DNA of 20,192 nt. Origin: Vibrio cholerae ATCC 14035 (GTDB lineage Bacteria > Pseudomonadota > Gammaproteobacteria > Enterobacterales > Vibrionaceae). The notes beneath the pieces are model-generated. The model was not told the origin of the DNA and did no database searches. It worked only from the letters and a program-made list of their open reading frames with translations. Of this stretch, positions 70-19,120 are shown in pieces. Location: assembly GCF_000621645.1 (NCBI RefSeq), contig NZ_JHXR01000032.1, forward strand, positions 1-20,192, given 5' to 3'. Each line of letters begins with the position of its first letter. Position 1 is the stretch's first letter. The position numbers were made by a program, and so were the translations under genes.

Positions 70-95
70 TAACGCCCGCCTAAGGGGCTGGCAAC
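70..95 (-). repeat. VCR (integron attC), R'-proximal 26 bp, separated from the rest of the site by the island
   Basis: TAACGCCCGCCTAAGGGGCTGGCAAC is identical to the first 26 nt of the intact VCR at 19596..19717 and to the truncated copy at 20170..20192. Homology stops right after AC at 94..95. Confidence 0.9.
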
Positions 96-132
96 AGAAA
101 AACGCTACTATTACCACAGTTGTTACATAACC
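70..132 (+). other. attL (VCR half-site + AC core + island P' half-site)
   Basis: VCR sequence runs up to AC (94..95). The P' arm AGAAAAACGCTA-CTATTACCAC-AGTTG-TTACA (96..127) mirrors the arm at 19053..19084. Confidence 0.75.
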
Positions 133-172
133 AGTAACCCAAGTTAAACGGAATTTAACGGAGAGTAGCTAA

Positions 173-325
173 ATGCGTAAACAAAGCCTTAAACCTGTTG
201 TAGTCACTGCACAGCCTTGTGAGATCATTAACTTTGTAAACCACAGCAAACACTTGTCAATCAAGCAATGTGTGAGGTTACGCCTCTTAGCTGCTCGCCT
301 AGAATTCCATCAAACCTCAATTTAA
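173..325 (+). CDS. Small hypothetical protein (50 aa), not in the supplied ORF track
   Basis: ATG at 173 preceded by GGAGAG (160..165). Reads MRKQSLKPVVVTAQPCEIINFVNHSKHLSIKQCVRLRLLAARLEFHQTSI and stops with TAA at 323..325, 18 nt before the next gene. No recognisable family. Confidence 0.35.
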   Translation: MRKQSLKPVVVTAQPCEIINFVNHSKHLSIKQCVRLRLLAARLEFHQTSI

Positions 326-343
326 TTTAGGAGATACTAATAT

Positions 344-838
344 ATGTTTAAAGTGTTAATTCATGAACGTAGTAAAGACGTTAAAATTCTGCCTGATGGT
401 GGGTTTGATTTAACCGTATTGTTGTTTGGTGTGTTTGTCCCCTTGTGGCGTGGACAATACAAACGTGCATTAAGTTACCTAGCAATTGTTATTTGCACCT
501 TGTTTGTTGCTTGGTTATTTATTCCTTTCTTCTCCAACAAACACTATATCAAGGATTTGTTAGAGAAAGACGGGTATTTATTGGCAGAAGATTATACAGG
601 TATTAAACCTGTAATCCCTGACACCTCCCCACTAATGATCATGCTGAAAGATTTTGTCAGTTGGTTTATGTTTATCCATGTTTTACTTGGTGTTCTTGGT
701 TTATTTATATTAGGGGATTTGTTGTTAGCTGTTACCATAATCGCCCTGTTTGGTTTAGGGTTGGCTTTACGTTACCACCGTGCTTTAGCTAAACACCAAG
801 CTATCACAAAGTATAATGAGGTGAGTAATGCTGCTTGA
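344..838 (+). CDS. Integral membrane protein; N-terminal region resembles the DUF2628-type small membrane domain
   Basis: AGGAG RBS 8 nt upstream. Several hydrophobic spans (LTVLLFGVFVPLW, LSYLAIVICTLFVAWLFIPFF, FVSWFMFIHVLLGVLGLFILGDLLLAVTIIALFGLGLAL). The GF-x-LTVLLFGVFVPLWRGQYKRAL pattern is reminiscent of DUF2628; this comes from memory, not alignment. Confidence 0.7.
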   Translation: MFKVLIHERSKDVKILPDGGFDLTVLLFGVFVPLWRGQYKRALSYLAIVICTLFVAWLFIPFFSNKHYIKDLLEKDGYLLAEDYTGIKPVIPDTSPLMIMLKDFVSWFMFIHVLLGVLGLFILGDLLLAVTIIALFGLGLALRYHRALAKHQAITKYNEVSNAA

Positions 839-1055
839 TCAAGATTATATCGACAGTAATTTCCGCAAATACCACGTAAACACAATAAAAAAGTGGTGTT
901 CTGGGGAGTGTAGAGGTTTGACGGAAGAGTTAGCCCTTAATTCTCTTGATGTGCTTTTGCACGTGGAAGATTCCACACTAACAGAAATTGCCGAATCTAC
1001 AGGGTTAACACTAGAGACAGTTGCAAAGTTAAACGCAAAACTAGTGTTGTCATAG
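828..1055 (+). CDS. Small helix-turn-helix protein (75 aa)
   Basis: Overlaps the upstream gene by 11 nt; GAGG lies 7 nt upstream of the ATG. STLTEIAESTGLTLETVAKLN looks like an HTH. Confidence 0.6.
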   Translation: MLLDQDYIDSNFRKYHVNTIKKWCSGECRGLTEELALNSLDVLLHVEDSTLTEIAESTGLTLETVAKLNAKLVLS

Positions 1056-1110
1056 GGTTGGTTTTACAACTAGTTTTTAACAAGTTAGGTTAGTTTGTTT
1101 GTGTTATTAT

Positions 1111-1139
1111 GGGGAGGCTTAACGCCTCTCCTTTTTATT
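1111..1139 (+). terminator. Intrinsic terminator closing the left-end three-gene module, immediately upstream of int
   Basis: GGGGAGGC-ttaac-GCCTCTCC stem (one mismatch) followed by TTTTTATT. Confidence 0.7.
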
Positions 1140-1155
1140 AAGCGTGTGTGAATTT

Positions 1156-2814
1156 ATGCCAAAACTTTACATATTTAGACGAGTATCTAGTAAACGCCAA
1201 ACCAACAAAACAGGTTTAAAGATACAAGTTCGCCCTGAAACTGTAGAGCGTTTATTGTCTGAACATGGTTTATCAGAGGTTGTTGATCTTGGGGCTGAGG
1301 TTGCCAGTGCAAGCAAAGGTAAGCATATCGAAGAAGGGAGTATTTTAAAACGCTTTTTAATGAAATGTGAGCGCGGAGAAATTGAACAAGGGTCAATACT
1401 CGCTGTTTATTCCCTCGACCGTCTAAGCCGCCTTGAGAAGCTTGGACTGGCTAAGAGTCTAATCTACTTGCCGATTACAAACAACGGCGTGAGTATATTC
1501 GGTGAAATAGACAATTTCCTATACAAACCCCACGATGTTTTGAGTGAAATATTATCAAGCTTAGTGTTTGAGCGTGCAGCCGAAGAGAGCCGAGCAAAGA
1601 AAAACCGTAACATTGACAGTTTAGCGGCTAACCTCGCACAGTATCAGCGAGATGGACAATACACAACAAAACTGGGTAAATCTCCTAGTTGGATAAATCA
1701 CAAAACAGGTAAGCTTAACGAAGAGGCTGTATTGTGGCGTGAGGTGATTAATTGTTATACAAGTGGACAATATAAAAACTTATCCGCATTGCATACAGCT
1801 ATGCAATTGGCAATACCCTACAACACATTGAGCAAGGTTATTAATAACGCTCACAAAACGCTTATAGGGACAAAGGTTATTAAGGGTGTGGAGCTTGCAG
1901 AATTTTATGAGCCATTGTTAACACAAGAGGAATACAACCGTTTGTTGATTTATGTCCGACAAATGGGAACTGGTAAAGGTAAAGCTATTGCCACCACTAA
2001 AACCGAGAATATCTGGCTATTGAAGGGATTAGGAGAATGTCCTCAATGCGGTAGTTTGTGCGGGAGCTTCAAGAATGGTGCAAGTGTTAAAGATAAGGTG
2101 AGGTATAACTACCGATGCAATGCAGCCATAAACAAGCATTGTGATAGTCCCACGTATAACCTAAACCCTATAGAGGCTATCGTAACGCTGTTATCAGCCG
2201 ACTATTTGCATGAAGTTAGCCAAAGGGAAACCAACACCGAACTAAACGCTAAAATTGAAGCTATGCAGGTAGAGGTTGAACGGTTAGAAACACAATTAGA
2301 CCAAGCAACACAAGCCTTAAATACCTTTTTCAGCCCTGAGTTGGCACAAGCCATACCAAAATACCGAGAACAACTAGAAACCGCCCAAAACGAACTACAG
2401 ACACTATTAGCATTAGCTTCTAACCACACACCAATTAATGAAAGCTTATTATCAGCAGAGATTATATTAGACAAAGCTAACCCTGAAAGGGTGAAGCTTG
2501 TTAAATTGTTGCAAGGTTGTATTAATCGCGTGATTGTTACACGTAAGAGTGTTAAAAAGGGTGACATACGATTTAACCCAAAGATTTACACAGGCTGCGA
2601 TTACTCTCTGTTGTGCGTAAGGGTGGAATTTATAGATGGGAATATTAGGGTGTTTGATAGTGTGCTTAGGGACAACCTACGTTTAAATTTAAGTGTTAGC
2701 GATGGCACAAGATCAATTGGTTTAGAAAACTTTCATAGATTTAGCCGAAGGTTGAGAGAATACGATTTGATAAAATATTGTGTGATAAATAACCGCAAGC
2801 TGAAAATCACGTAA
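1156..2814 (+). CDS. int: Large serine recombinase (integrase)
   Basis: N-terminal catalytic motif YIFRRVSSKRQ and YSLDRLSRL. Cys-rich zinc-ribbon CPQCGS...YRCNAAINKHC. Long coiled coil (ELNAKIEAMQVEVERLETQLDQATQAL...ETAQNELQTLLA). About 550 aa and adjacent to attL. I prefer ATG 1156 (MPKLYIF) over the track's GTG 1144. Confidence 0.92.
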   Translation: MPKLYIFRRVSSKRQTNKTGLKIQVRPETVERLLSEHGLSEVVDLGAEVASASKGKHIEEGSILKRFLMKCERGEIEQGSILAVYSLDRLSRLEKLGLAKSLIYLPITNNGVSIFGEIDNFLYKPHDVLSEILSSLVFERAAEESRAKKNRNIDSLAANLAQYQRDGQYTTKLGKSPSWINHKTGKLNEEAVLWREVINCYTSGQYKNLSALHTAMQLAIPYNTLSKVINNAHKTLIGTKVIKGVELAEFYEPLLTQEEYNRLLIYVRQMGTGKGKAIATTKTENIWLLKGLGECPQCGSLCGSFKNGASVKDKVRYNYRCNAAINKHCDSPTYNLNPIEAIVTLLSADYLHEVSQRETNTELNAKIEAMQVEVERLETQLDQATQALNTFFSPELAQAIPKYREQLETAQNELQTLLALASNHTPINESLLSAEIILDKANPERVKLVKLLQGCINRVIVTRKSVKKGDIRFNPKIYTGCDYSLLCVRVEFIDGNIRVFDSVLRDNLRLNLSVSDGTRSIGLENFHRFSRRLREYDLIKYCVINNRKLKIT

Positions 2815-2848
2815 GAAAAAGACCGCCCTATTAAGGCGGTTTCTTTTA
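2815..2848. terminator. Bidirectional intrinsic terminator between convergent int and the leftward operon
   Basis: AAAAAG-ACCGCC-ctattaa-GGCGGT-TTCTTTT. The A-run and T-run flank a 6-bp GC stem, so it should work on both strands. Confidence 0.8.
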
Positions 2849-3265
2849 TGTGTTTAGAAAACCGTAGACAGTAGTTGTCCATGTTCTACCTGTCTTAGGG
2901 TTAAGTAGTGTTATTGGTGTCTTAGACGCACCGAACCACTCCCCAACCTCACCACCAAAACCTAGTAATACATAACCCTTTTGGACACAATTCCGCTGAA
3001 CCAAGATATGATACTGGTTTGGGGAATATTTGTAGCGACCACTGCAGGGACACGGCACTCTCTCATTGCAAACAAGATTACTTTTGGTTGATGTAAAACC
3101 ATCCGGAAATAACACTTCATCCACACTACAAATAGAACACTCAACCGTGAATACTGCATTACGTCCACTAGTTTGATCGGTGATACCCGTTACTGTTAGT
3201 GTGCCGCCCTTGGGTGTATGAAACTGCTCCCCGATAAACTCACGTTGTAATCTCGTAATTTTCAT
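2846..3265 (-). CDS. Homing-endonuclease-type DNA-binding protein without a catalytic domain (candidate repressor)
   Basis: AAGGAA RBS. The pattern FIGEQFHTPKGGTLTVTG, then CSIC...(19)...CNERVPCPC, then YVLLGFGG...TLLNPKTGRTW...VYGFL resembles the N-terminal Zn-ribbon/DNA-binding modules that precede T5orf172/GIY-YIG catalytic domains in phage homing endonucleases. At 139 aa it has no room for a nuclease domain. Confidence 0.5.
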   Translation of the reverse strand: MKITRLQREFIGEQFHTPKGGTLTVTGITDQTSGRNAVFTVECSICSVDEVLFPDGFTSTKSNLVCNERVPCPCSGRYKYSPNQYHILVQRNCVQKGYVLLGFGGEVGEWFGASKTPITLLNPKTGRTWTTTVYGFLNT

Positions 3266-3300
3266 ATTTCCTTTCTCTATTCTTCTTTTGTTGTTATTTG

Positions 3301-3702
3301 TTATTTTGAATCAATCAATTCGATCATTAATTTGAAAGTTTCTGAATTGATAGCTTGCCAAGTAATGCCACTGCCATACGTGTTTGCTTTAGCTGTAGTG
3401 GTGGTATAAGCCTTGATAAAATTATGTAGTATGTCGTTGAAAATGCACTTATTTTCTTCTGTTAACCACCGCTTGAAATAATCATGATGCAGTTCGACAA
3501 GTTGTTTTATTTCTACAATTGTTTGTGGTGGGATAAGCGAGATTAAACTCATTCGCACTTGATTGCTTTGCCCCACTAAATCCTCTACACGAAAACCCAA
3601 TGCATCCACAAAGGCGCAAGTAATATCATGGTATTGTAGAGGGAGAAGGAGGCGGTTATATTCGTCATATTCAAAATTAAAAGTTTGCGCTGTCATGTTC
3701 AT
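3301..3702 (-). CDS. Hypothetical protein (133 aa)
   Basis: AAGGAA RBS; tight operon spacing with its neighbours; no recognisable motif. Confidence 0.7.
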   Translation of the reverse strand: MNMTAQTFNFEYDEYNRLLLPLQYHDITCAFVDALGFRVEDLVGQSNQVRMSLISLIPPQTIVEIKQLVELHHDYFKRWLTEENKCIFNDILHNFIKAYTTTTAKANTYGSGITWQAINSETFKLMIELIDSK

Positions 3703-3716
3703 AGTTCCTTATATTA

Positions 3717-4094
3717 TTAAAACTTGGTTGATTTAAATTGACGTGGATCGAATGGTTTGGGAGGTGTATTAGGTGTAGTTGTTGGTTGTTGTCCACCTTC
3801 TACAGCCTCCACTGCTTGCACTTTCTTCAGCAATTCCTCTAGATCTGCAACAACCTTGCTCAAGTGTTTCTGTTCATTCAATACAATCTTGATTGCATCG
3901 GATTGACCTTTAGTTAATTCGATCTCGCCTTTGCAAGCTTTGATTAGTTGTAACATGATCCCGTCATAGGCTTTATTGATGCGACCTAGTGCCTTATTGC
4001 TACCTTTGGCAGCTTCTAGCAGGGTGTCGAGGTGATTGTCCAAGGAGGCTTTGATATTGTCGTTTGATTTATACACTGGATATACATTACTCAT
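3717..4094 (-). CDS. Coiled-coil protein with Thr/Pro-rich C-terminal tail
   Basis: The start at 4094 (MSNVYPVYK) has an AAGGAA RBS and avoids overlap with the upstream gene; the track's start at 4124 is the alternative. C-terminus is QQPTTTPNTPPKPFDPRQFKSTKF. Confidence 0.7.
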   Translation of the reverse strand: MSNVYPVYKSNDNIKASLDNHLDTLLEAAKGSNKALGRINKAYDGIMLQLIKACKGEIELTKGQSDAIKIVLNEQKHLSKVVADLEELLKKVQAVEAVEGGQQPTTTPNTPPKPFDPRQFKSTKF

Positions 4095-4110
4095 TTTTAT
4101 ATGTTCCTTA

Positions 4111-4386
4111 TTATATGATTTCATGGAATTGGTAGAGGCGGTCGGTTTCTTCCGATAAGGTTTTTACAATACTGTTATATGTTGAACGAATTTTAGTAAT
4201 TCGATTAACACTCAATGTTGTCCCTGTTTCCGCTTTAACGATATTTGCAATTGTGGCTCGTGGGATATTCAAACCACTTAGGCACACTACCAATTTAGTT
4301 ACATTATTGGTGCGAGTTTCTGACATTAGTGACATACCCAAACCAATAATATCGTTTTGAATCTTACTTAAAATTTTACTGCTCAC
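4111..4386 (-). CDS. Small protein, possible HTH regulator; first gene of the leftward operon
   Basis: GTG start with AAGGAA upstream. GLNIPRATIANIVKAETGTTLSVNRITKIR is HTH-like. Sits downstream of the minus-strand promoter at 4658..4687 and a ~265-nt leader. Confidence 0.6.
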   Translation of the reverse strand: MSSKILSKIQNDIIGLGMSLMSETRTNNVTKLVVCLSGLNIPRATIANIVKAETGTTLSVNRITKIRSTYNSIVKTLSEETDRLYQFHEII

Positions 4387-4415
4387 TTTATATAGTTTTC
4401 CTTATGTTGTTTGTT

Positions 4416-4448
4416 GTTAACTTTACAAGTTAGGGGGTTAACTTTACA
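4416..4448 (-). repeat. Two exact 12-bp direct repeats GTTAACTTTACA, 21 bp apart, in the leader of the leftward operon
   Basis: Copies at 4416..4427 and 4437..4448; each contains the GTTAAC palindrome. They lie 30-60 nt upstream of the start at 4386. Confidence 0.8.
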
Positions 4449-4650
4449 CCCATAAATTAACCGTCCTATAAGGGCTAGGTGAGGTTTTAGAGATTAGACG
4501 GCGTATTATATTGAGGATTATTTAGAGCTTGTTGTGGACGCTTGGAGAAGCGTTATATACCCCCTATACCCTACCCCCTAACTAAAACTGAGGAATTGAC
4601 GAGTTTAAAGGGGAGTTGTGGATGTATAACAGGAAGATTTCCTACCCTTA

Positions 4651-4690
4651 TATTATCATTATAGCATTTAATGAGAATCATTATCAATAG
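4651..4690 (-). promoter_or_regulatory. Sigma-70 extended -10 promoter for the leftward operon, with an overlapping Fur-box-like operator
   Basis: Minus strand reads TTGATA (4687..4682), 18 nt, TGcTATAAT (4666..4658). The module is near-identical to 11966..11998 on the plus strand. 4667..4685 (TTTAATGAGAATCATTATC) matches the 19-bp Fur consensus GATAATGATAATCATTATC at 16 of 19 positions. Confidence 0.7.
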
Positions 4691-5405
4691 GTATTAGTAA
4701 AAAGGTGATAGTTTTAAGCCAATATTATCAACAAATATCTATCACCTTGTAATTATAACAAGTGATATTGTTTTAACATGGATATTAGGACTACCGCTAA
4801 AATTTCAGAAAATTATAAAAAATTTTATAGCAGGTAATAAATTGAGGGCTAAACCATTATGAAACCTAGAGATAATATCCATATGAGGGAGAGGGTGTGA
4901 GGTGGGGTAAGGTAAAATTATACAAATTGAGCAAGAGCTGCTAAGCCCACCCACTCCACCCCTTTACACTACTTATACATTTTTCTTGCATATCCATGCA
5001 CAGGTGTATTTCTCCCCTATCGGGACAATAATTCCACTCATAATCAAAGATTAAATTATGGCGCACTGAGGTGTAATCTCTTACAACCATTGATACATAA
5101 GGGTTTGAGTGCGATTACGTGCGCCTATTATGCGTTATTGGTAGATATTAGAACCATTATGTTAAATGAGTGATTTCTAATATATAGGTTAGAGGTGTCT
5201 AGTTTGCATTTTCACAAGTTTACTGTCTGCAAAAGGTGGTAAAACCTCATAGATAACTGAGTAAATACTTGCACCAATTTAGTGCAATAAAAAGTAATGT
5301 AAGAATCTGCACTTTGAATATGATTCGCTGTAAATCTCCCACTTTTCACAATTCCCATAATTTAACCTAAATATTCGTGACTGAGTGTTGTATGCATACA
5401 TATTC

Positions 5406-5451
5406 TTTGCATTTTGCAAATCATAATGATAACTATTTGCATTTTGCAAAT
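5406..5451. repeat. Two exact 16-bp direct repeats TTTGCATTTTGCAAAT, each an internal dyad (TTTGCA/TGCAAA), 30 bp apart
   Basis: Copies at 5406..5421 and 5436..5451. Related TTTGCATT cores occur at about 5203 and about 6985. Confidence 0.85.
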
Positions 5452-5812
5452 ATGAGTTTACACTTATGTGCGGCGATGGTGTTTGTGATTTGTTTAGCAC
5501 CTCTTCTGTATATTATACATAACCTTACCCCCTAACAATCCTCTTTGCATATGTGTGGCATACTCCATATGTGTATATAACAGCTTATATGCTTTTCTAT
5601 CCTCATTTAAACACGCTCAGAACGTCATTTAACGCATCTTATCACCACCTTAATATGATTGCCTTATGTATCATTAAAACCTCTTAGAATCGCTTACAGG
5701 AGCTTACAACGTGTTGTAGGAGCGTTTATAACAAGTTATAAAGTGCTTTTAGATAGATTCCGAGAATATACGGTAACTTACCACCTACCCAATCTCTTAT
5801 ATCTCCACTTAT

Positions 5813-5860
5813 ACGTTAGTATTACTGACGTTAGTATTACCCCCAACGCAATAATGCGTT
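5813..5860. repeat. Tandem 13-bp repeat ACGTTAGTATTAC (x2, 15-bp period) followed by the palindrome AACGCAataaTGCGTT
   Basis: Repeats at 5813..5825 and 5828..5840; palindrome at 5845..5860. Confidence 0.85.
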
Positions 5861-6003
5861 TACCCACACATATTTGTGTATCCCACAATAACGCAACAGA
5901 ACGCATTTTAAACGTGTTTACACACAACCCAATACATTCGTATGCCTTTGCATACAAAACTCAATACAGAGCGTTACAGAGCGTTTTACACAAGAAATGT
6001 GTA

Positions 6004-6094
6004 TCCACACAAGGAATACTCCCACACACAAGAATTGTGTAATCCACACAAATAAAGAATTCCACACAAAGAATATTGTTTGCACAAAAGGGAT
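6004..6094 (+). repeat. Iteron-like array, five copies of TCCACACAA-GAAT with ~18-20 bp period
   Basis: Copies start at 6004 (TCCACACAAGGAATA), 6021 (CCCACACACAAGAATT), 6043 (TCCACACAAATAAAGAATT), 6061 (TCCACACAAAGAATA) and 6079 (degenerate, TTGCACAAAAGGGATA). Confidence 0.75.
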
Positions 6095-6106
6095 AACCTT
6101 CACAGG

Positions 6107-6641
6107 TTAGACGAACACAACATACAAGGAGCATAGCGACACAGTAGGTTGTTTAGTGAGTCTTACCTATACACACTCAATAAACGTTAGTTTATGCAAC
6201 ACACAATGTTATAGCGGAGCTATTAAGTATGCACATTAGTTACGTAGTAACAAAGGATGCCCACAAGAGGTGCTTTAGCACTTAGACGAACAAAGTGAGT
6301 CTATTATTTGTAAGCGAAGCGCACACACAACCGAAGGGCGTAGGCGTTAGCCGTGAGGTGAGTGTTAACGAACTTATTACTTATAGTTCTCTTGTCTTTA
6401 AATCTTTACATGTAAAAACAAAAACAAAGATCTTTAAATCTTTTCTTGTGTGGTTCTTATGCACTTAGGAGCGTAAGCGAGTTAGTGCACACATAAGCGC
6501 AAGCGTTGTCACGTAGTGAGCACAGGCGAACGTAGTGTTATAGTTATGTGAGCTTATGCGAACTTAGTGTTATTTGGTTTTAAGCCTCATGGCGTTTGAA
6601 TGTTTTAGTTTGGACGAAGTCCTTATGAACTAAGCGAAGCG
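6107..6641. repeat. Degenerate array of (A/G)CGAA(C/G) and TTAG(T) motifs flanking an AT-rich core
   Basis: Exact 11-mers TTAGACGAACA (6107..6117, 6282..6292) and TAAGCGAAGCG (6311..6321, 6631..6641). 16-mers GCGAACgTAGTGTTAT and GCGAACtTAGTGTTAT at 6526..6541 and 6558..6573. Many looser copies. Confidence 0.6.
6395..6443. repeat. AT-rich core bracketed by exact 13-bp direct repeats TCTTTAAATCTTT (candidate DNA-unwinding element)
   Basis: Repeats at 6395..6407 and 6431..6443. The spacer is ACATGTAAAAACAAAAACAAAGA and contains a GATC. Confidence 0.6.
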
Positions 6642-6657
6642 TGTTCTTTATAGTTAG

Positions 6658-6760
6658 TGGGGTGATTTTCATACCTATAAAGTATGTTTATATGGATGAT
6701 TTTCAGCCCTATAAGATTCTCTAAGCTTCTATTTATATGGGTGATTTTCATACCTATAAA
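6658..6760 (+). repeat. Three ~25-bp iterons TATGG(G/A)TGATTTTCA(T/G)(A/C)CCTATAA
   Basis: Copies at 6658..6681, 6691..6715 and 6736..6760. Copies 1 and 3 share the 21-nt core GGTGATTTTCATACCTATAAA exactly; copy 2 has 4 substitutions. Spacing is 33 and 45 bp. Confidence 0.8.
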
Positions 6761-7000
6761 TTCATACAGTAGTACAGTTTACGGACTGCTTCCTACTTTC
6801 ATCCTCCCGATGCACACGCGGCAATGTGCGCCGAGACGGAATATTTGCAGCCCCAGAAAATCAATCGCTTACCAGATTTGTTTAGCGTAGAGGTGCTAAA
6901 AGGCATCACATAATCATATGTTACGTTACATACCTTAACCATCTGACCGCAATTTATTGGTTTGGTGTTTATACGGTGTGCATATTTGCATTGGGGGTTG

Positions 7001-7064
7001 TTGAACGTTTTTGTTCAAATCATCTCACTGTCCATTGATTGTTGTATATTTTTCATGTTATAAT
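7001..7064 (+). promoter_or_regulatory. Promoter of the winged-helix regulator gene, with an upstream palindromic operator candidate
   Basis: TTGATT (7035..7040), 18 nt, TGtTATAAT (7056..7064). The palindrome TTGAAC-gttttt-GTTCAA at 7001..7018 ends 16 bp upstream of the -35. Confidence 0.6.
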
Positions 7065-7100
7065 GGTCATAATAACAACAATCATTGAGGAGCCAACCTT

Positions 7101-10885: not shown

Positions 10886-10886
10886 A

Positions 10887-11617: not shown

Positions 11618-11638
11618 CAAACTAAGAGGATTATTAAA

Positions 11639-11938: not shown

Positions 11939-11965
11939 ACATTTTCACTTATGACTTGAAAATAG

Positions 11966-11998: not shown

Positions 11999-12004
11999 TA
12001 ATAT

Positions 12005-12229
12005 GTAGGGGAGGATAACCTTACCTACTTTTGATTATATGTTTCTCCTTACATTCATATAATACACCTCTTCAAATTGCGCTGTCACGCAATCTTAGCT
12101 AACTGCTATTGCATACCCAATAGTATTCTCCCCTGTTCATAACCATTGTTAGCGTGGTGAGGATTCCTTATGTTTGTTGTTATGTAAATTAATAAAGGTG
12201 GTTCCCTTCTTCAACCACTTTTATTTTTA
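12005..12229 (+). ncRNA. Candidate ~225-nt structured non-coding transcript, either an sRNA or a terminated leader of the late operon
   Basis: Bounded by the promoter at 11969..11998 and the terminator at 12195..12229. No ORF longer than 7 codons. Hairpins: GTAGG-GG-AGG-ATAA-CCT-TA-CCTAC (12005..12028), ATTGCG-ctgtca-CGCAAT (12076..12093), CTATTG-catacc-CAATAG (12106..12123). Confidence 0.55.
12195..12229 (+). terminator. Intrinsic terminator
   Basis: AAGGTGGTT-cccttcttc-AACCACTT(T): a 9-bp stem with one G-U pair, followed by a T-rich tail (TTATTTTT). Confidence 0.75.
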
Positions 12230-12391
12230 CCATAGCATTCAAGTCATAAGTGTAAATTGTAAATTGTGAAAGGTCGATTCGACAGTAAATCGGCCACTTT
12301 AAAAACCCTATTACACTAGCAAATGACAGACTGTTAGCTGTAAATATTTTATAACAACAATAAATAATAATAATTACAAGGAAATACGAAC

Positions 12392-12868
12392 ATGCCTTAC
12401 TACAGTAAAAATGCAGAACGTGCCGCTTTAATTGGTTGCACACTACAACAACTTAAAAAACTTAACGTGCAGTTTTTAAATATTAAATATAGATGCGGTC
12501 GATTAAAAGGTTATGAAACCTGCCAGTTTAAATTAGGAACCTTTGACGATTTTATTGAATGGATTGCCTCGCAAGGTGGATACAAAACAAGTCCTCACGG
12601 TCATGCATACCACGTCAGCCGCATCCGAGATCAAGGTGATTACGAATATTCAAACATCAGATTTTGTAGTCACGCAGAGAATTTAAGAGAGACTGCTCAT
12701 TTTTGGTTAGTTACCGACATTAAAACCTCACGTCAGGAACTATTTCAAGGAAATTTAACAACCAAGCTAAAAGAATTATTTGATGTGAGTGGCTATGGTG
12801 CTTATAAAGCCGCTGAAAGTGGTCGTTTATACAAAGGCCGATTTAAAATTGACAAGTTAAGTATTTAA
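12392..12868 (+). CDS. HNH-type homing-endonuclease-like nuclease
   Basis: AAGGAA RBS. HGHAYHVSRIRDQGDYEYSNIRFCSHAENLRE fits the H-N-N/H beta-beta-alpha-metal motif (H...N...H-x-EN). The C-terminal FDVSGYGAYKAAESGRLYKGRFKI resembles the small DNA-binding modules at the C-termini of phage homing endonucleases. Confidence 0.65.
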   Translation: MPYYSKNAERAALIGCTLQQLKKLNVQFLNIKYRCGRLKGYETCQFKLGTFDDFIEWIASQGGYKTSPHGHAYHVSRIRDQGDYEYSNIRFCSHAENLRETAHFWLVTDIKTSRQELFQGNLTTKLKELFDVSGYGAYKAAESGRLYKGRFKIDKLSI

Positions 12869-12880
12869 AAAGAGGAACAC

Positions 12881-13105
12881 ATGATAACCATTGAACTTTT
12901 AAGCAGTAAGCTTGCAATGCTAAGCCCAACAGAGCGACAAGCATTAAGGCTAATGCTAACCACAAACTTAACTAATAGTGAAATTAACAAAGAGCTAGGC
13001 GTTAGTCACAACTATGTTTACTGGCTTAAAAATGAAAGCCCACACGCTGAAACTGTGCAAATGTTTTTACAACTGAATAACAAATTTAAGGAAACAAAAG
13101 AATGA
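12881..13105 (+). CDS. Small LuxR / sigma-70-region-4-type HTH protein (74 aa)
   Basis: AAGAGGA RBS. LSPTERQALRLMLTTNLTNSEINKELGVSHNYVYWLK follows the LSxRExxVLxL...xEIAxxLgiSxxTV pattern. Confidence 0.65.
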   Translation: MITIELLSSKLAMLSPTERQALRLMLTTNLTNSEINKELGVSHNYVYWLKNESPHAETVQMFLQLNNKFKETKE

Positions 13106-13860
13106 TTACGATTAATTTAAAACTTGGTAATAGTGAAAGTATTACACGCACATATAGCCAGATTAGTATTGAAGAGTCTCGTATTATCCTTGATACCCCT
13201 ACCTCAACAGTTAACGAGACAGTATTAAGTTTTGCAAATGGTGTGCTTAGTAGTATTACGGTGACGGAACCGAAGCAAGGGGTTAGCACAATGCCGCAAG
13301 CAACCACCCGTAGTGCCGTATATGCGACGATTAGTAACAAGGGGTTGGTGCTTAACTTTACAACATACGCCATATTAAGTGCAATGCTAAGTGGTATTAG
13401 TGCGAATGCCGAGATTGTGAAGGGTTTAAAACAAAAACCTGCACAGCAACAGGTTGTTAAAAGCGCTGCACTAGGTAAAGAAACACCGGAACAAACACAA
13501 CAACGCTTACAACGTGCATTAGCAGCTAAACAAAGCAAACAAGCTAATACTGGTGTTAATAAGCAGCAAATTTACGATGAGTTAAATAAAGCTCGCAACC
13601 CTATCAAATCTGGTAAAGAACTAGCCAAAATTGCAAACACTAAACAAACAGAATTGGTTAAGTGTGGTGCAATCATGAAAGGTAATAGCGAATGGGAAGA
13701 ATTGGTTAAATACCTACAAGGTGGTGATTTTACCTACGATGCATTTGACGCCTTTTCCGATGTTTTAAAAGAGCGTGATTATTCAACATGTCTAACAAAA
13801 ATTCGTGAATTAGCAAACCGCTTAAACATTGTTAACGGTGTTATTCACCTAATCAAATAA
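13102..13860 (+). CDS. Hypothetical protein (252 aa), Gln/Lys-rich central linker
   Basis: ATGA overlap with the upstream gene; AAGGAA RBS; no family recognised. Confidence 0.7.
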   Translation: MITINLKLGNSESITRTYSQISIEESRIILDTPTSTVNETVLSFANGVLSSITVTEPKQGVSTMPQATTRSAVYATISNKGLVLNFTTYAILSAMLSGISANAEIVKGLKQKPAQQQVVKSAALGKETPEQTQQRLQRALAAKQSKQANTGVNKQQIYDELNKARNPIKSGKELAKIANTKQTELVKCGAIMKGNSEWEELVKYLQGGDFTYDAFDAFSDVLKERDYSTCLTKIRELANRLNIVNGVIHLIK

Positions 13861-13953
13861 AAGAATTTTGGGAGTGTGGTGTGTGCTCTCAGATGTTTAA
13901 GCAATACGCACCAAACATAACAACACAATACAAAATATAAGGAAAAATGAACT

Positions 13954-14838
13954 ATGACTACTACTACCAACATTTTCGACCTAGCCGCTGTAATTGCAGA
14001 ATACAAAGCAGGTTTCGAGCAATATAAAGCGGACAATAAACAATATAATGCTGATGCATACCGCCGCAAAATCGAAAGTATTAATAGCGATGCCGCACTA
14101 ACTAATGGTGCTTACCGTGATTTTGCTTATGGTTCTCAACTGTTTGAGGGTGATAAAACCCTAACAGAAATTGCCGAGATGCTTAAAACACGCACCGCAC
14201 AAACGGAACGAGAAGACGAACAAGGCTTTATTTACCCACACGTTGTTATTCAGTTTGTGTCCCCGATGACAGCTACACAATACTACGGTTTGATTGGGGA
14301 GTGTATCAAGCTAGGGTTTGAAGTGTGTCCAGACTGGCGCTTACATGTTGGAACTGGTCGCCAATTTCCCGCATGTCGATTGGTGCGCAAAGCTGAATGG
14401 TATAAGCCACATAACGAGAAGCTGATGGAAAGTCGCATTGCAGAAGCTGAAAAACACGAAGCGGAACGCCTGAAAGCTGAATACTTCAACGAACAGCGTG
14501 TGCAAGCATATGTGGAACAAGCACAACGTAAGTTTATGGCTGCACAAGCACAACAAGCCGCCATTAGCTTATCAGCCGCTATCTCTCGTGAGTTGTATGC
14601 ATCAAGTGGTTTGAGTGATGATGACCTTGCAATCGTTAACCAAAGCGATGTATGGGCGTTTAATACCCTAGCCGCACAACTGCAAGAAAAAGACCCTAAT
14701 GTAATTTCTGCAAGCTTACAATCACTAGGTTACGCAAAAGGTAAGCATAAACTTTCGGACGGTAAACAAGCTACCTTGTGGGTGAAAGATGGTGCAGATG
14801 TCACAGCACTAACCCTAGAAAGTAAGTATATTCAATAA
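13954..14838 (+). CDS. Hypothetical protein (294 aa) with a central coiled coil
   Basis: AAGGAA RBS. The segment ESRIAEAEKHEAERLKAEYFNEQRVQAYVEQAQRKFMAAQAQQAA is coiled-coil-like. No family recognised. Confidence 0.7.
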   Translation: MTTTTNIFDLAAVIAEYKAGFEQYKADNKQYNADAYRRKIESINSDAALTNGAYRDFAYGSQLFEGDKTLTEIAEMLKTRTAQTEREDEQGFIYPHVVIQFVSPMTATQYYGLIGECIKLGFEVCPDWRLHVGTGRQFPACRLVRKAEWYKPHNEKLMESRIAEAEKHEAERLKAEYFNEQRVQAYVEQAQRKFMAAQAQQAAISLSAAISRELYASSGLSDDDLAIVNQSDVWAFNTLAAQLQEKDPNVISASLQSLGYAKGKHKLSDGKQATLWVKDGADVTALTLESKYIQ

Positions 14839-14891
14839 CTCACATACTTTAGGGGAGATTGCTCCCCTACAATAATAAGATAAAAGGAAAT

Positions 14892-15101
14892 ATGAACATG
14901 AAAATGACAGCAGAACAATTTAACGAGCGTTTAGCACACATTGTAAAATGTTGGGTGGAGTTTGGTTACGAAGTGGAAACTTGGGAAGAATTTTTGGCCG
15001 CTGAATTAAAATGTATGGAGTTTCAAGCAGAATTAGTCGCCGAAGCAGAACAGCGTGTGCAGTATGCTTTAAATTCTTTAAAAACATTACAACTTAAATA
15101 A
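14892..15101 (+). CDS. Hypothetical small protein (69 aa)
   Basis: ATG 14892 (MNMKMTAEQF) follows AAAGGAAAT. The track's start at 14859 lacks an RBS. Confidence 0.6.
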   Translation: MNMKMTAEQFNERLAHIVKCWVEFGYEVETWEEFLAAELKCMEFQAELVAEAEQRVQYALNSLKTLQLK

Positions 15102-15112
15102 GAGAGGGAAAT

Positions 15113-15589
15113 ATGAAATATAGTGACACCATTATTAATAAAACTTTTACAACCGATAAAGGCGATAAAATTGTAAAAGCCGTAACACTACATGCTATTA
15201 AACAAGGTATGTTGCAATTTAAATTAGCTCGCGTTTTAGCCCCTGCGATGGGCGGCGTAGTCGATGGTATGGCAAGCAAAGATCGCACCTTAATGTACTC
15301 AACAGTGTTTAACCTGATTGCAGCAAAAGCGACAGAAGAGTTGTTTGAGGAACTACAAACTCTACTACTAGGCAGTATTTTAGATAGTAGTGGCGAACCT
15401 TTAGAAACTGTTGAACGTATTAACACTTATTTTGCTAATACCAGTATTCACCAATTTGATCTTTTAGTGTGGTTGTTTGAAAAACAACTACTAGAACCCC
15501 TCCTTAAATCTTCTGCCTTATCTGGTTTTATGCCAAAACTTAAAACTATTGCAGATAACTTTATGCAGGAAAATAAAGAGGTGGAATAA
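15113..15589 (+). CDS. Possible tail assembly chaperone-like protein
   Basis: GAGAGGGA RBS. It sits upstream of the tape-measure-like gene. The KQGMLQFKLARVLAPAMGGVVDG segment resembles some phage tail-assembly-chaperone families; the call rests on weak motif and position only. Confidence 0.4.
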   Translation: MKYSDTIINKTFTTDKGDKIVKAVTLHAIKQGMLQFKLARVLAPAMGGVVDGMASKDRTLMYSTVFNLIAAKATEELFEELQTLLLGSILDSSGEPLETVERINTYFANTSIHQFDLLVWLFEKQLLEPLLKSSALSGFMPKLKTIADNFMQENKEVE

Positions 15590-16143
15590 TGACCGACCTT
15601 TTCCCTATGCCAACGGTTAGTGTTATTGGGGAATGGTTGGAGGTAATGAGGGGTGATATTGAGGACAATATAGAGCAAATTTTAACGCTATACCTTAAAC
15701 AATTTCCAAACACCCCTACTCAAGATTTACTCACAAAAACATTCACCTACCTAGATTTTATAACCGATACATTAACAAAACATCAACGATTGTTAACTAT
15801 GGCAGAAAGTAGGATCGAAGAATTACAAACCCTACTTGCAGCCCCTGATATACCGGAACCTAAACGTGTCGAGCTAGAGAAAACCTTGTATAGTTTGAAA
15901 CAACAAAAGCAAGGTGGCAAAAAGCAACAAGCTGTTACACGTTGGTTAACTAAGCATGGTGTTGAAGTTAGCGAGATCGAAAATTGGGCTTTATATATTA
16001 GTGCTGAAAGTGGTTTAACAGTAAACGATATTTATAATAAACCGTGGGATGCGTTTATAAAGCTTAATAACACTATCGCCGTTCGCACTATGATTAGTGA
16101 AGCAATTCAACATGATGCGAGGCATCAACAACAACAACAATAA
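15589..16143 (+). CDS. Hypothetical protein (184 aa) ending in a poly-Q tail
   Basis: TAATG coupling with the upstream gene; GAGGTGGA RBS. Confidence 0.65.
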   Translation: MTDLFPMPTVSVIGEWLEVMRGDIEDNIEQILTLYLKQFPNTPTQDLLTKTFTYLDFITDTLTKHQRLLTMAESRIEELQTLLAAPDIPEPKRVELEKTLYSLKQQKQGGKKQQAVTRWLTKHGVEVSEIENWALYISAESGLTVNDIYNKPWDAFIKLNNTIAVRTMISEAIQHDARHQQQQQ

Positions 16144-16160
16144 TAATAAGAGTGTAACCT

Positions 16161-16526
16161 ATGAATTTTGTAATAACAAACCGCCAAAACTTTATAAAAT
16201 TGTGTGTTGGTGTTGTGTGTTATTGGTTTTCTATCGTTACACTCTATTTATATACATTCACCTCATTACAAAACGCCTTTTTCCCCATAACAATATCATT
16301 ATTAATTCACCTCAAAATATATAGGGTATTACACAAAAAATACCCTTGCATAAAAGAAATTAAAACTAAAGTAATTGTTAAAAAGTATATTGAAGAGGAT
16401 AACGGGAAGTTAGTCGATTTGAAGGAATGGAAGGAACAAAAAGCCAATGATGAAAACATTAAAAAAGCGGATGATGTTACTAGCAGCACAAACCCTACCC
16501 TATTTAAAAGAACTAAGGGAAGATGA
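16161..16526 (+). CDS. Small two-TM membrane protein with a charged C-terminal tail (holin-like topology)
   Basis: Hydrophobic spans FIKLCVGVVCYWFSIVTLYLYTF and AFFPITISLLIHLKIY, then a Lys/Glu-rich tail. The RBS is weak (AAGAG). Overlaps the next gene by 80 nt. Confidence 0.5.
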   Translation: MNFVITNRQNFIKLCVGVVCYWFSIVTLYLYTFTSLQNAFFPITISLLIHLKIYRVLHKKYPCIKEIKTKVIVKKYIEEDNGKLVDLKEWKEQKANDENIKKADDVTSSTNPTLFKRTKGR

Positions 16527-16782
16527 GACAGGTAATATTGTAAACGTTGATAATACCCCTAGCCAGTTAAAATACGACATTACAGCTCTTGAGGATGAGT
16601 TATATAGAGCATCCATTGCAACTATGCAAAATGATGAAGCTAAAAAGCTAGGGTTTGAATTTAGTGCAAAAGTGGATGAGGTAGCTAAATTACTTATTGC
16701 ACAGAAAGATAATTTAGATCTACAGGAAGTTATTTTTGATTTTCTTGTGGAATTTCCAGAATACAGCGAGGCGTTTAAATGA
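16447..16782 (+). CDS. Hypothetical acidic protein (111 aa) immediately upstream of the tape-measure-like gene
   Basis: AAGGAA lies 10 nt upstream; ATGA overlap with the following gene. This is the position typical of a tail chaperone. Confidence 0.6.
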   Translation: MMKTLKKRMMLLAAQTLPYLKELREDETGNIVNVDNTPSQLKYDITALEDELYRASIATMQNDEAKKLGFEFSAKVDEVAKLLIAQKDNLDLQEVIFDFLVEFPEYSEAFK

Positions 16783-18527
16783 GTAATGCAGGTGTAGTAG
16801 AGAAATTTGTCTACGAGAATATTATTGACAACCGAAAGGCTGTGCGTGGTATGCGTAAATTTGAAGAGATGACACGCAAATATAGCGCTAAAATTACAAA
16901 ACTGTTTGAAGATACAGAAAAAAGTAAACAACGTGCAATTAAAAACACAGAGAAAGAAGAAGTAAAAGCCGCTACCAAGAAATTAACAGCAGAGCAAAAA
17001 GCCGCTGCACAAGCTGAAAAGTTAAAAGCACAAGAAGCCGCCAAACTTAAAAAGTTTAATGATTGGAAGCTTGCACAATTCCGTAGTGCTGCGTTTGAGC
17101 GTTTAAGCTTAGAGCAAAAGATGGAATTGAAACGTGTGTTAAGTGCAAAACGAAGTGAGGAGGAAATCCGCGAGGAATACCGCCAAACCACCGCAATGAT
17201 GCGTAGAGAAAACCAACGCCGTGCAGCCTATGAACGCAAACAAAGCAAGATTAATAATAGTGGTGTTAAGGGTGGTTTAACAGCAGGTGCAACAGGGGGT
17301 GGTATTGTAGCCCTTGCAGGTAATCCGGCAGCTTTAGCGGCAGCCGCTGTTATTGGTGGTGGTGCGATGGCTATAAATAGTGGTAGCCAACAATTCAGGG
17401 ACACCAAGGAAGGTGCAAACCTAGTAGGCTTGGATTATAACGAGTTCGCCCAATTAGCCAACGGTTTAATAGCTGTAACGGAGACTATCCCAGACGTAAG
17501 CACCGCAGCCGACAAAATTAAAGATTTGCTAGACCGTAGCGGCGAAGTTATGGCTGACACCGTGTTCGATAGTGATAAGGGTGAGTTTGATAAGGGAGAA
17601 GGTTCGATTTTAGCTAACTTGTTGTTAAAACAGGGTGTTATAACTGGTGATAAAGAATCGTTAAATAACTTTATGAATCAATCCCCTGACAAGTTTATCG
17701 ATAGTGTTGTCAAAGCAACAGAAGGGCTAGACGCTAAACAACAAGCTTATGTCCTAGAGGCATTTGGTTCTGACTTTTATAACATTGTTCGAGGCATTCA
17801 GACTAATAGACAAGGGTTTGAGGCAGGTAAACAAAATGCTGTGCAGTTTAACACTGCAGAAATGACAGCCGCTACAGAGTTTAATAAAAGTGTTGCAAGT
17901 ATGGTTAGTGCCATTAGTAATGCCGATTTAAACATTTTTAAAAGCTTTACGGAGTTTCTGAGCCCATCGAGTCTTGCAATGTTTGGTAAGCTTGGGGAGT
18001 TGTTAAATAGTATCGCTACTCTTTTAGGTTACACATTATCTGGTGCATTAAACTTGTTATCCCCTGCTATTAACCTAGTGTTAGATGGTTTGAATTTATT
18101 ACTTGGTGGACTAACTAACGTTCAGCGTTATATTACCGAATTAACAAAATATGTAAGCGATGGTTTAACGATAGCTACCGAGTGGATTAAAAACAGTTTG
18201 AAGGGAATGTTACACGATATTTTGAACGCATTACCAGATTTTGCTAAAAAGGCGTTAGGTATCTCAACTGTAGAACAAACCCCAACTACACCTACTACCA
18301 CGACTGCACCAACTACACCAAAACCCTATAATATGACCTCGCCCACAACATACGGCGGCTACAGTGGTTATGGCACACAAAACCCTACAACCACTACAAA
18401 CCCCACAAACACAACAGCTACTGTTAATCTTGTTGTGGACGGTAACACATTAGCTACGGCGGTAGTTAATTCTGCCGTAGGTCAGGAAGGCGTTAAACAG
18501 ATTATGCATAGATCGAGACCTTACTAA
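16779..18527 (+). CDS. Tape-measure-like protein (582 aa)
   Basis: N-terminal Lys/Glu/Ala coiled coil. Gly/Ala-rich hydrophobic block GGLTAGATGGGIVALAGNPAALAAAAVIGGGAMAINSG. A second hydrophobic block LGYTLSGALNLLSPAINLVLDGLNLLLGGL. Thr/Pro-rich C-terminal linker. Largest ORF of the module. Confidence 0.55.
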   Translation: MSNAGVVEKFVYENIIDNRKAVRGMRKFEEMTRKYSAKITKLFEDTEKSKQRAIKNTEKEEVKAATKKLTAEQKAAAQAEKLKAQEAAKLKKFNDWKLAQFRSAAFERLSLEQKMELKRVLSAKRSEEEIREEYRQTTAMMRRENQRRAAYERKQSKINNSGVKGGLTAGATGGGIVALAGNPAALAAAAVIGGGAMAINSGSQQFRDTKEGANLVGLDYNEFAQLANGLIAVTETIPDVSTAADKIKDLLDRSGEVMADTVFDSDKGEFDKGEGSILANLLLKQGVITGDKESLNNFMNQSPDKFIDSVVKATEGLDAKQQAYVLEAFGSDFYNIVRGIQTNRQGFEAGKQNAVQFNTAEMTAATEFNKSVASMVSAISNADLNIFKSFTEFLSPSSLAMFGKLGELLNSIATLLGYTLSGALNLLSPAINLVLDGLNLLLGGLTNVQRYITELTKYVSDGLTIATEWIKNSLKGMLHDILNALPDFAKKALGISTVEQTPTTPTTTTAPTTPKPYNMTSPTTYGGYSGYGTQNPTTTTNPTNTTATVNLVVDGNTLATAVVNSAVGQEGVKQIMHRSRPY

Positions 18528-18985
18528 TGCAACTGAATAAACAAGCCTCGAAAGGGGCTTTTAATCAAATCAAAACCCTCACCACTTTGTTAAAACGTAG
18601 TGATAAACATGGTTTCGAGGTTGGTGTATTACAGGACAAAAAGCATAGTTCTGGTTTTAGCATTGTGGGTATAGCATGGGTTACACATAGCGGTAGTGGT
18701 AACATACCTGCAAGGGCTTGGGTGTATATTAGCAATGCTATGCATAAACAACGGCGTAATAAAGCGTTTAAAGCTGAATTTAAAAAGTTTTTACGTGGTA
18801 AGGTTACGCTTAACACTGTTTGCAATGTATTGGGTAATAAATGGGTAGACGATGATAAAAATGTATTAGGTGATCCGTTAATCCTCATGCCCAACTCGCC
18901 ACAATGGGCAGCACGTAAAGGTAAAAACACTCCCCTTGTGGAAACTGGTGAACTAAGAGACAGCATTGACCACAAAGCTATCTAA
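18527..18985 (+). CDS. Tail-completion / neck protein-like (HK97 gp10 or Mu G-like)
   Basis: TAATG coupling. The C-terminal PLVETGELRDSI matches the conserved (D/E)TG-x-LR-x-SI motif of those families, and NIPARAW resembles their P-x-RPF segment. Confidence 0.5.
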   Translation: MQLNKQASKGAFNQIKTLTTLLKRSDKHGFEVGVLQDKKHSSGFSIVGIAWVTHSGSGNIPARAWVYISNAMHKQRRNKAFKAEFKKFLRGKVTLNTVCNVLGNKWVDDDKNVLGDPLILMPNSPQWAARKGKNTPLVETGELRDSIDHKAI

Positions 18986-18990
18986 TATTA

Positions 18991-19020
18991 AAACCCTGCC
19001 TTTTTGGTGGGGTTTATTCA
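18991..19020 (+). terminator. Intrinsic terminator closing the rightward operon
   Basis: ACCCTGCC-ttttt-GGTGGGGT: an 8-bp stem with two G-U pairs, followed by TTATT. Confidence 0.55.
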
Positions 19021-19050
19021 TAAGTTATGTGACAAATATCACAATTTTCT

Positions 19051-19120
19051 GGTGTAATTTACGTGGTAATAGCTTTACTTACCTACGCATTTCCACCAAA
19101 CTCAAACACAACAACCGTAA
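19051..19120 (+). other. attR (island P half-site + AC core + VCR half-site)
   Basis: TGTAA-tttac-GTGGTAATAG-ctttacttacct (19053..19084) is the mirror image of 96..127. AC sits at 19085..19086 and VCR sequence follows. The palindrome TGTGAcaaataTCACA lies just inside at 19028..19043. Confidence 0.75.

Follow-up and report, generated by a model that had tools for sequence, protein, structure and literature searches.

The phage satellite PLE5 in a superintegron VCR of Vibrio cholerae ATCC 14035: an annotation map and an observation on its tcaP allele

Satellites of the SaPI/PICI and P4 types and the PLEs of Vibrio cholerae are alike in their helper-dependent excision and replication, in the redirection of capsid size and in their interference with helper packaging, although no sequence relationship exists between them. 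Unlike the former, PLEs rely on a RepA_N initiator and on a serine recombinase whose directionality factor is encoded by the phage, inhibit TerL instead of TerS, and have a strictly lytic helper. Two integration targets have been described, namely the VCR (the attC site of the superintegron) for the PLE1-type integrase Int and vca0581 for the PLE2-type Int. For PLE5, excision, replication and transduction induced by the phage ICP1, as well as a complete block of ICP1, have been published (PMC5481146, PMC6002521), and ICP1 displays counter-defence by means of CRISPR-Cas or the origin-directed nuclease Odn. The stretch of DNA analysed here (the window) comprises 20,192 nucleotides of contig NZ_JHXR01000032.1 from V. 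cholerae ATCC 14035. The element that it carries is, almost beyond doubt, PLE5, the oldest known member of the PLE family, integrated into a superintegron VCR on chromosome II that is also its site in the classical strain O395. This element is already known, and the additions made here are an annotation map and an observation on the tcaP allele.

The type member of the family, on which most of the mechanistic work was done, is PLE1, represented in this work by the locus L027. This locus was taken as PLE1 since the four protospacers published for 'PLE1' all occur in it and since its TcaP covers residues 1-298 of PDB 8G1R chain E, that is, the full length of that 298-aa chain; the assignment comes from spacer content and the 8G1R_E match, not from a GenBank PLE1 record. 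Both elements share the VCR target, Int (93%), the capR-gpi-gpsB-gpsA operon (93-98%), the non-coding region with its pac mimic and iterons (about 90% at the DNA level), orf7, and the products of repA (85% identity), nixI (65%) and tcaP (85%). In general, DNA identity is 85-93% from int through tcaP, and protein identity is 65-100% from int to the open reading frame (ORF) that follows tcaP. The differences comprise 830 additional bp at the left end of PLE5 and a 283-aa orphan ORF after its repA, while PLE1 has a 131-aa ORF upstream of the replication operon that PLE5 lacks. According to the literature, LidI has 121 aa in PLE5 and 66 aa in PLE1 (10.1101/790493), and the tail module of PLE5 has strongly diverged from that of PLE1 (21-36% protein identity).

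Identity and boundaries of the element

By blastn against the fetched loci, positions 1-10838 of the window are 100% identical to V. cholerae O395 (CP000626.1), and positions 6765-20192 are 99.9% identical, with one mismatch and one 14-nt gap. The PLE5 of O395 (CP000626.1 / CP001236.1; GCA_000016245.1, India 1965) has the same VCR site, flanks and gene order, and the only differences, a 14-nt deletion and one single-nucleotide polymorphism (SNP) on the O395 side, lie in tcaP. In the comparison with ADAI01000034.1 (GCA_000176395.1), CP196624.1 and JALDCC010000024.1, which covered 6779-20192 and thus both the right flank and the full-length tcaP, identity is 100%, without any difference.

Two papers use the name PLE5 for the O395 element: PMC5665941, which assigns a spacer to 'PLE5, CP001236.1', and PMC10002752, which lists 'tcaP (PLE5_2008), CP001236.1, VC395_A0477'. 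Data Set S3 of PMC8844924 gives O395 (GCA_000016245.1) as PLE_5 and prints its flanking sequences; the left one, ending in ..ACAAACTCTTCATCACC...GGGGCTGGCAACAGA, contains positions 1-98 of the window, and the right one is the reverse complement of the window from 19084 onward. GCA_000176395.1 is also listed as PLE5 in that study. In addition, published PLE quantitative PCR primers and tcaP cloning primers find exact matches in the window. The original prediction had spoken of a PLE or a close architectural relative; the identity with O395, the published flanks and the matches to CapR, DUF6945, 4RO3 and 8G1R_E establish that the element is a PLE proper and, more precisely, PLE5, and nothing in the sequence evidence contradicts this reading.

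The boundaries were set by comparing public V. cholerae assemblies, found through exact-protein look-ups, and not by eye. A VCR is split in two, with its first 26 nt (TAACGCCCGCCTAAGGGGCTGGCAAC, 70-95) on the left and 98 nt (19087-19184) on the right. Their joint length of 124 bp is that of a VCR, and both halves match the intact VCR at 19596-19718 when aligned with it. The first nucleotides of the window belong to a superintegron cassette; on the right side come this intact VCR, a cassette for a GNAT acetyltransferase (19715-20170, minus strand) and the beginning of a further VCR. Five different left flanks were found among PLE5 copies, and each turns to common sequence at the switch from ..CAAC to AGAAAA. 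These left flanks are variable and VCR-derived, including a G/A polymorphism in ..CTG(G/A)CAAC, and they end at CAAC, where the constant AGAAAAACGCTACTATTACC.. begins. At the right junction, the constant sequence ends in ..CTTACCTAC and is followed by a shared GCAT and then by two different VCR right halves, with the switch lying between ..CCTAC and GCAT. Finally, an uninterrupted site between the same two cassettes is found in three PLE-free genomes (L021, L023 and L025).

A serine recombinase leaves a two-base crossover, and AC (94-95 and 19085-19086) is all that the two junctions have in common where the switch occurs. Since this shared AC marks the crossover, the element spans 96-19086, with a length of 18,991 bp. 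Its GC content is 38.1%, compared with 41.9% in the right flank, which bears out the proposal that 18.99 kb of AT-richer DNA splits a VCR. The bounds proposed at that time, 94-19086, were right to within 2 bp; the comparison of five occupied and three empty sites now moves the start to 96, and the convergent flanks and empty sites establish both junctions. The mobility of PLE5 between VCRs is demonstrated by the presence of the identical element, with precise junctions, in at least five different VCRs.

A crossover deeper in the VCR, near the transition from CTA to AACTC, was considered on account of the 11 central nt that differ between the empty-site and the reconstituted VCR. It was ruled out because the variable VCR-derived sequence of independent insertions abuts CAAC on the left and GCAT on the right. 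The VCR centre (19087-19103) reads GCATTTCCACCAAACTC in the reconstituted VCR and GCATAACACTAAACTC in the uninterrupted VCR of the same site in the three PLE-free genomes, the remainder of the 187 nt compared being identical, and other PLE5 insertions have GCATAACAACC at this place. The difference may reflect lineage variation of the VCR, or conversion.

Helper phage, gene content and alternative readings

A megablast search of the whole element against a phage collection returned only matches of 32-37 nt, all of them in ICP1 genomes and located in the CRISPR array beside csy4. Six ICP1 CRISPR spacers match the element exactly, two from the array of ICP1_2011_B and four printed in PMC5665941 (Table 1). 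A TC is found directly 5' of the protospacer, in spacer orientation, in all six cases. This TC is taken by us to correspond to the GA motif of the ICP1 CRISPR system. The six exact protospacers with their common adjacent TC establish that the element is targeted by the ICP1 CRISPR system and point to ICP1 as the helper. Furthermore, the iterons of the element are of the PLE1/4/5 class, which is the class that Odn cuts. The likeness to the ICP1 pac site includes exact runs of 18 and 21 nt against ICP1_2011_B, and this mimic is placed 528-614 bp upstream of gpsA, as described in 10.1101/2024.04.22.590561.

The gene map was drawn from Pfam, PHROGs and PDB sequence searches, combined with tblastn against L027. 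The element contains about 29 ORFs, of which about 21 run rightward between 7101 and 18985, fewer than the ~25 rightward genes initially counted. Among 28 ORFs, no capsid, portal, terminase, sheath/tube or lysin family was found with Pfam and PHROGs, and the Walker A motif ([AG]xxxxGK[ST]) is absent, according to a regular-expression search, from all six frames of the entire 20-kb window with the cassettes on either side. Both absences had been noted from the predicted products and now hold in profile searches for a head, terminase and lysis gene set and, for Walker A, in all frames. The lack of these families and of the motif indicates dependence on a helper; as its own major capsid, portal, terminase and lysis genes were not found, the element cannot be an autonomous phage, which agrees with the original prediction.

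Other parts of that prediction have found their counterparts as well. The RepA_N initiator (DUF6945, 4RO3), the HNH nuclease (the HNH/N enzyme encoded by nixI) and the fragment of a tail module (a partial one) are all present, as are the leftward four-gene operon (2846-4386) and the repeat-rich region of 2.7 kb described as ORF-free, which measures 2,714 bp and is ORF-poor (4387-7100). The large serine recombinase was correctly recognized but is not next to attL, because three small ORFs (173-325, 344-838 and 828-1055) intervene. It had also been suggested that most ORFs lack a recognizable function and are candidate effectors; about half of them now have published functions. All PLE parts described so far are present, sviR as a candidate, and all genes are intact. 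Public records label nearly all of its genes 'hypothetical'. PADLOC, run on ten ORFs of unknown function, gave nothing beyond a match to a BrxC fragment, which was dismissed as sub-threshold.

Several alternative readings can be weighed against this evidence. A new PLE variant, either an eleventh type or a recombinant, could be invoked to explain the 14-nt indel and the SNP that separate the window from O395, both in tcaP, and PLEs are known to exchange modules. However, apart from tcaP the window is identical to O395 over 20 kb, this tcaP allele has already been described as a PLE5 allele, and GCA_000176395.1, 100% identical over 6779-20192, is PLE5 according to PMC8844924, so that a new variant is very improbable. 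The assignment to another satellite family (PICI, P4-like, cfPICI or PICMI) or to an integrative mobilisable element deserves hardly any credence: size and helper-dependent lifestyle are alike, but Pfam and PHROG scans reveal no tyrosine integrase, primase-helicase, Sid/Psu, TerS, or relaxase or conjugation-related family, and every recognizable marker (CapR, DUF6945, TcaP) is PLE-specific.

The presence of tail-related genes without head genes, and of near-identical copies common to many genomes, could also suggest a decayed prophage remnant in the VCR that is no longer mobile. Against such immobility stand the occurrence of the identical element in at least five VCRs with precise junctions, the intactness of all genes, the possession of its own initiator and iterons, the mimicry of the ICP1 pac site, the ICP1 spacers directed against the element, and the published excision, replication and transduction of PLE5 (PMC5481146, PMC6002521); a remnant is therefore extremely unlikely. 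Certain limits apply to the details of the PLE5 reading. The model outlined below rests mostly on work with PLE1, and its least secure step is the role of the tail module, which has 21-36% identity to that of PLE1. Moreover, the segment 12005-12228 is a candidate sviR by its layout, and the names gpi, gpsA, gpsB, nixI and lidI are putative assignments from position, size and identity to L027.

Feature map and working model of PLE5

The features of the window are collected in Table 1.

Table 1. Features of the window, with positions counted from its first nucleotide; PLE1 stands for the locus L027.
Feature	Position	Strand	Evidence and remarks
Left part of split VCR (superintegron attC)	70-95	+	AC 94-95, attL crossover dinucleotide
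PLE5	96-19086	.	18,991 bp, 38.1% GC; identity to O395 and three assemblies, published PLE_5 flanks
Small ORF, 50 aa	173-325	+	Gene call in O395; 3' part in accessory segment; no Pfam/PHROG match; function unknown
Membrane-protein ORF, 164 aa	344-838	+	phrog_4915 (unknown function), 3e-9; no PLE1 counterpart
Small ORF, 75 aa	828-1055	+	Weak helix-turn-helix (HTH), Sigma70_r4 0.007, below Pfam cut-off; gene call in O395; mostly in accessory segment
int, PLE1-type large serine recombinase	1156-2814	+	552 aa from the ATG of the public annotation; Pfam Resolvase and Zn_ribbon_recom
capR, repressor of ICP1 capsid operon	2846-3265	-	Pfam PF21817 CapR 3.6e-22; 95.7% identity to PLE1
gpi (orf3), putative ICP1 large terminase inhibitor	3301-3702	-	Operon position; 97.7% identity to PLE1; function from 10.1101/2024.04.22.590561
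gpsB (orf4), putative genome packaging specifier	3717-4124	-	97.6% identity to PLE1; function from 10.1101/2024.04.22.590561
gpsA (orf5), putative genome packaging specifier	4111-4386	-	93.3% identity to PLE1; function from 10.1101/2024.04.22.590561
Non-coding region between divergent operons	4387-7100	.	2,714 bp, ORF-poor, repeat-rich, 36.4% GC; holds pac mimic and origin
ICP1 pac-site mimic	4914-5000	+	74.7% identity over 87 nt to ICP1_2011_B 401-486, E 5e-8
Conserved PLE diagnostic amplicon	5100-5249	.	Primers zac14 (5100-5119) and zac15 (5229-5249) exact
Replication origin, three 34-nt semi-palindromic iterons	6648-6760	.	Repeat family D1; 89.5% identical to PLE1 locus
orf7, MarR/IclR-like winged-helix regulator	7101-7814	+	HTH_IclR 1.7e-7; 96.2% identity to PLE1; described in PMC13595925
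Two small ORFs (78 and 60 aa), early replication operon	8200-8625	+	98.7% and 95% identity to PLE1
repA, RepA_N-type initiator	8603-9643	+	346 aa from annotated start; DUF6945 (PF22182) 1.3e-21; 85% identity to PLE1
Orphan accessory ORF, 283 aa	9728-10579	+	Directly after repA; no PLE1 counterpart; function unknown
Small ORFs (50, 48, 112 and 99 aa), variable region from repA to sviR	10733-11938	+	112-aa 100% and 99-aa 99% identical to PLE1
Candidate sviR small RNA	12005-12228	+	Coordinates inferred from signals, not from published SviR alignment
nixI, putative HNH/N nicking endonuclease targeting ICP1	12392-12868	+	65.4% identity to PLE1 counterpart
Two ORFs, 74 aa (weak sigma-70 region-4-like HTH) and 252 aa	12881-13860	+	96% and 78% identity to PLE1; function unknown
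tcaP, external scaffold for small capsids, full-length, 294 aa	13954-14838	+	PDB 8G1R chain E 2.2e-162; 85% identity to PLE1 TcaP
Tail operon start: small ORF, tail assembly chaperone (15113-15589), 184-aa ORF	14859-16143	+	Phage_TAC_15 1.6e-7; phrog_29715 1.5e-9
lidI, putative membrane protein breaking ICP1 lysis inhibition, 121-aa form	16161-16526	+	Hydrophobic ORF at expected place
111-aa ORF and tape-measure-like tmp (16779-18527, 582 aa)	16447-18527	+	Position as orf22/tmp (PMC13595925); 24% identity to PLE1 TMP
Tail completion / Neck1-like protein	18527-18985	+	phrog_222 5e-28
Right part of split VCR	19087-19184	+	attR AC at 19085-19086
ICP1 protospacers	8510-8541	-	Exact; strands of this and the next five rows are spacer-sense
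ICP1 protospacer	3119-3150	+	Exact
ICP1 protospacer	3143-3174	-	Exact
ICP1 protospacer	7690-7721	-	Exact
ICP1 protospacer	13017-13048	-	Exact
ICP1 protospacer	16614-16645	+	Exact

At the left end, a stretch of 830 bp between attL and int (207-1036) has no counterpart in PLE1; the ORF at 344-838 falls within it, together with the greater part of the 75-aa ORF and the 3' portion of the 50-aa one. An ORF 2 with transmembrane domains and no homologue in PLE1/2 has been described in PLE4 and PLE5 (10.1101/790493), and the ORF at 344-838 is probably this one. The recombinase matches the integrase family phrog_95 (4e-28) and shows 92.9% amino acid identity to the Int of PLE1. CapR found no match in the PDB sequence search. 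The 5' end of capR (3126-3266) shows 69% DNA identity over 144 nt to ICP1_2011_B 90266-90406, within ORF165 (gp165), annotated as 'hypothetical protein', and CapR also matches phrog_681, 'endonuclease' (8e-36). Both likenesses are in line with a published proposal that traces capR back to a homing-endonuclease gene of a phage.

The region between the divergent operons is the counterpart of the 2.7-kb non-coding region of PLE1 (PMC7145576). On the minus strand, its iterons read TTTATAGGTATGA-AAA-TCACCCATATAAA. The origin of PLE1/4/5 has been described as three iterons of about 30 bp with 13-bp inverted sub-repeats around a poly-A tract (PMC7145576), and the fit of the repeats at 6648-6760 to this form identifies them as the origin of replication. 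On the other side of orf7, a perfect 14-bp tandem repeat (CTAGTTAATAACTG, 2.6 copies, 7807-7842) lies over the stop codon of this gene and opens the 385 bp that separate it from the early replication operon; only one copy is present in the PLE1 locus.

The two small ORFs of this operon have no family matches in Pfam or PHROGs. The repA product matches PDB 4RO3 (3.8e-70), which is the N-terminal domain of PLE RepA (PMC7145576). For the 283-aa ORF that follows, a word-indexed search of 5.8 billion sequences recovered its own cluster and nothing else, and an exhaustive HMMER search of 1.84 billion representatives recovered just a 31-aa piece of the same protein, with no Pfam, PHROG or PADLOC match; its single-sequence AlphaFold model (pLDDT 43.9) is unusable.

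The candidate sviR lies in a gap of about 450 bp, free of ORFs, upstream of nixI. A sigma-70-like promoter (11969-11998, 11 of 12) precedes it, and a hairpin with a T-run (12191-12229) would end a transcript of about 220 nt. A 20-nt inverted repeat flanks it (11941-11960 and 12238-12257), and PLE1 has exactly the same 40 nt over the terminator hairpin (12191-12230). The published SviR is a 210-nt species with flanking inverted repeats. No Rfam family was found for the candidate at gathering thresholds. As for NixI, an H..N..N motif can be read around residues 74-97, and no match was found in the PDB sequence search. It has been reported that PLE NixI proteins are '>65%' identical and that nixI comes after a small ORF-free space (PMC9410903), both of which match here.

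The tail operon has been described as orf18-23 (PMC13595925), and 121 aa is the length of LidI in PLE3, PLE4 and PLE5 (10.1101/790493). The 111-aa ORF and tmp have no Pfam or PHROG match. When the tail module (15113-18527) is compared with that of L027 (17532-20714), the chaperone, the 184-aa ORF, the 111-aa ORF and the tape-measure-like protein show 21-36% protein identity, as against 65-100% in the rest of the element. This divergence looks like an exchange of modules between PLEs.

A working model can be proposed by mapping published experiments, for the most part with PLE1 and in some cases with PLE5, onto the parts of the window, with all biochemical activities taken from the literature. 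Int is made constitutively, and PexA of ICP1 is the directionality factor for excision, as shown for PLE5 too (PMC6002521). Int would keep the element in the VCR and, upon ICP1 infection, PexA and Int would recombine attL (AC 94-95) with attR (AC 19085-19086) to form a circle. RepA binds iterons, and replication needs ICP1 functions (PMC7145576); in the window, RepA would act on the three iterons at 6648-6760 and borrow the ICP1 replication machinery. NixI nicks ICP1 DNA (PMC9410903), and its counterpart here would do likewise, blocking late ICP1 replication.

Later steps would affect the particle and its contents. CapR represses the ICP1 capsid operon, as it presumably would in this host, and TcaP builds small capsids from the ICP1 coat protein (PMC10002752), a scaffolding role that the full-length TcaP of the window may fulfil. 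Gpi blocks TerL, and GpsA, GpsB and the pac mimic favour satellite DNA (10.1101/2024.04.22.590561). It can be envisaged that Gpi blocks the large terminase of ICP1 while GpsA, GpsB and the mimic at 4914-5000 steer packaging to the satellite. LidI accelerates lysis (10.1101/790493) and would bring it forward here, and the small RNA SviR, which regulates transcripts of both genomes, may tune both in the same way. The partial tail module might contribute to the transducing particle. The net result would be the absence of phage progeny and the transfer of the satellite to a new VCR.

The tcaP allele and its meaning for PLE5

The tcaP gene of O395 lacks 14 nt (GCAGAATACAAAGC) near its 5' end, which results in a truncated ORF of 219 aa; the window has these 14 nt (at about 13996-14009) and encodes 294 aa. 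The SNP is the other difference between the two alleles and changes Gly to Ser in O395. In the compared loci L003 and L001, the tcaP ORF spans 7176-8060 and 7401-8060, respectively. The 14 nt of the window are identical to those of PLE1, and the exact 294-aa TcaP protein is indexed in 75 blocks of the collection. In GCA_000176395.1, 100% identical to the window across tcaP, the gene is called as a 294-aa ORF. Data Set S2 of PMC8844924 lists GCA_000176395.1 as PLE5 and gives 1991 and Indonesia as its year and country. The assembly is presumably that of RC27, an O1 strain of the classical type from Indonesia (1991).

It has been reported that the truncated tcaP allele is non-functional, that the 21 PLE5 copies known up to 1991 do not differ from one another, and that, after decades of truncated copies, the full length was 'restored' in a 2017 isolate (PMC10002752). 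The primer CMB18, for 'tcaP PLE5 2017', matches the window at 13954. A full-length tcaP in an isolate dated to 1991 does not fit the account of a restoration in 2017, and this observation is a new side result. According to the data of PMC8844924, flanks and VCR site do not differ between O395, the genome of 1991 and that of 2017. The full-length allele of the 1991 isolate, the equality of its 14 nt with those of PLE1 and the VCR site common to the three genomes argue for the full-length form being ancestral. We therefore lean, with moderate confidence, towards an ancestral full-length tcaP that persisted beside the O395-type deletion in the classical lineage, the 2017 allele being a case of survival and not of reversion.

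Among satellites that fully block a phage with a strictly lytic life cycle, PLEs are the best studied, and in cholera patients they shape the arms race of V. cholerae with ICP1. The recognition of PLE5 in the window is useful for annotation, as published names are transferred to coordinates, and is not in itself a biological novelty. If classical strains had both full-length and truncated PLE5 by 1991, the loss and restoration of small capsids as told in the literature would need revising. Should this be true, PLE5 would offer a natural polymorphism with which to probe the effect of capsid remodelling on satellite spread.

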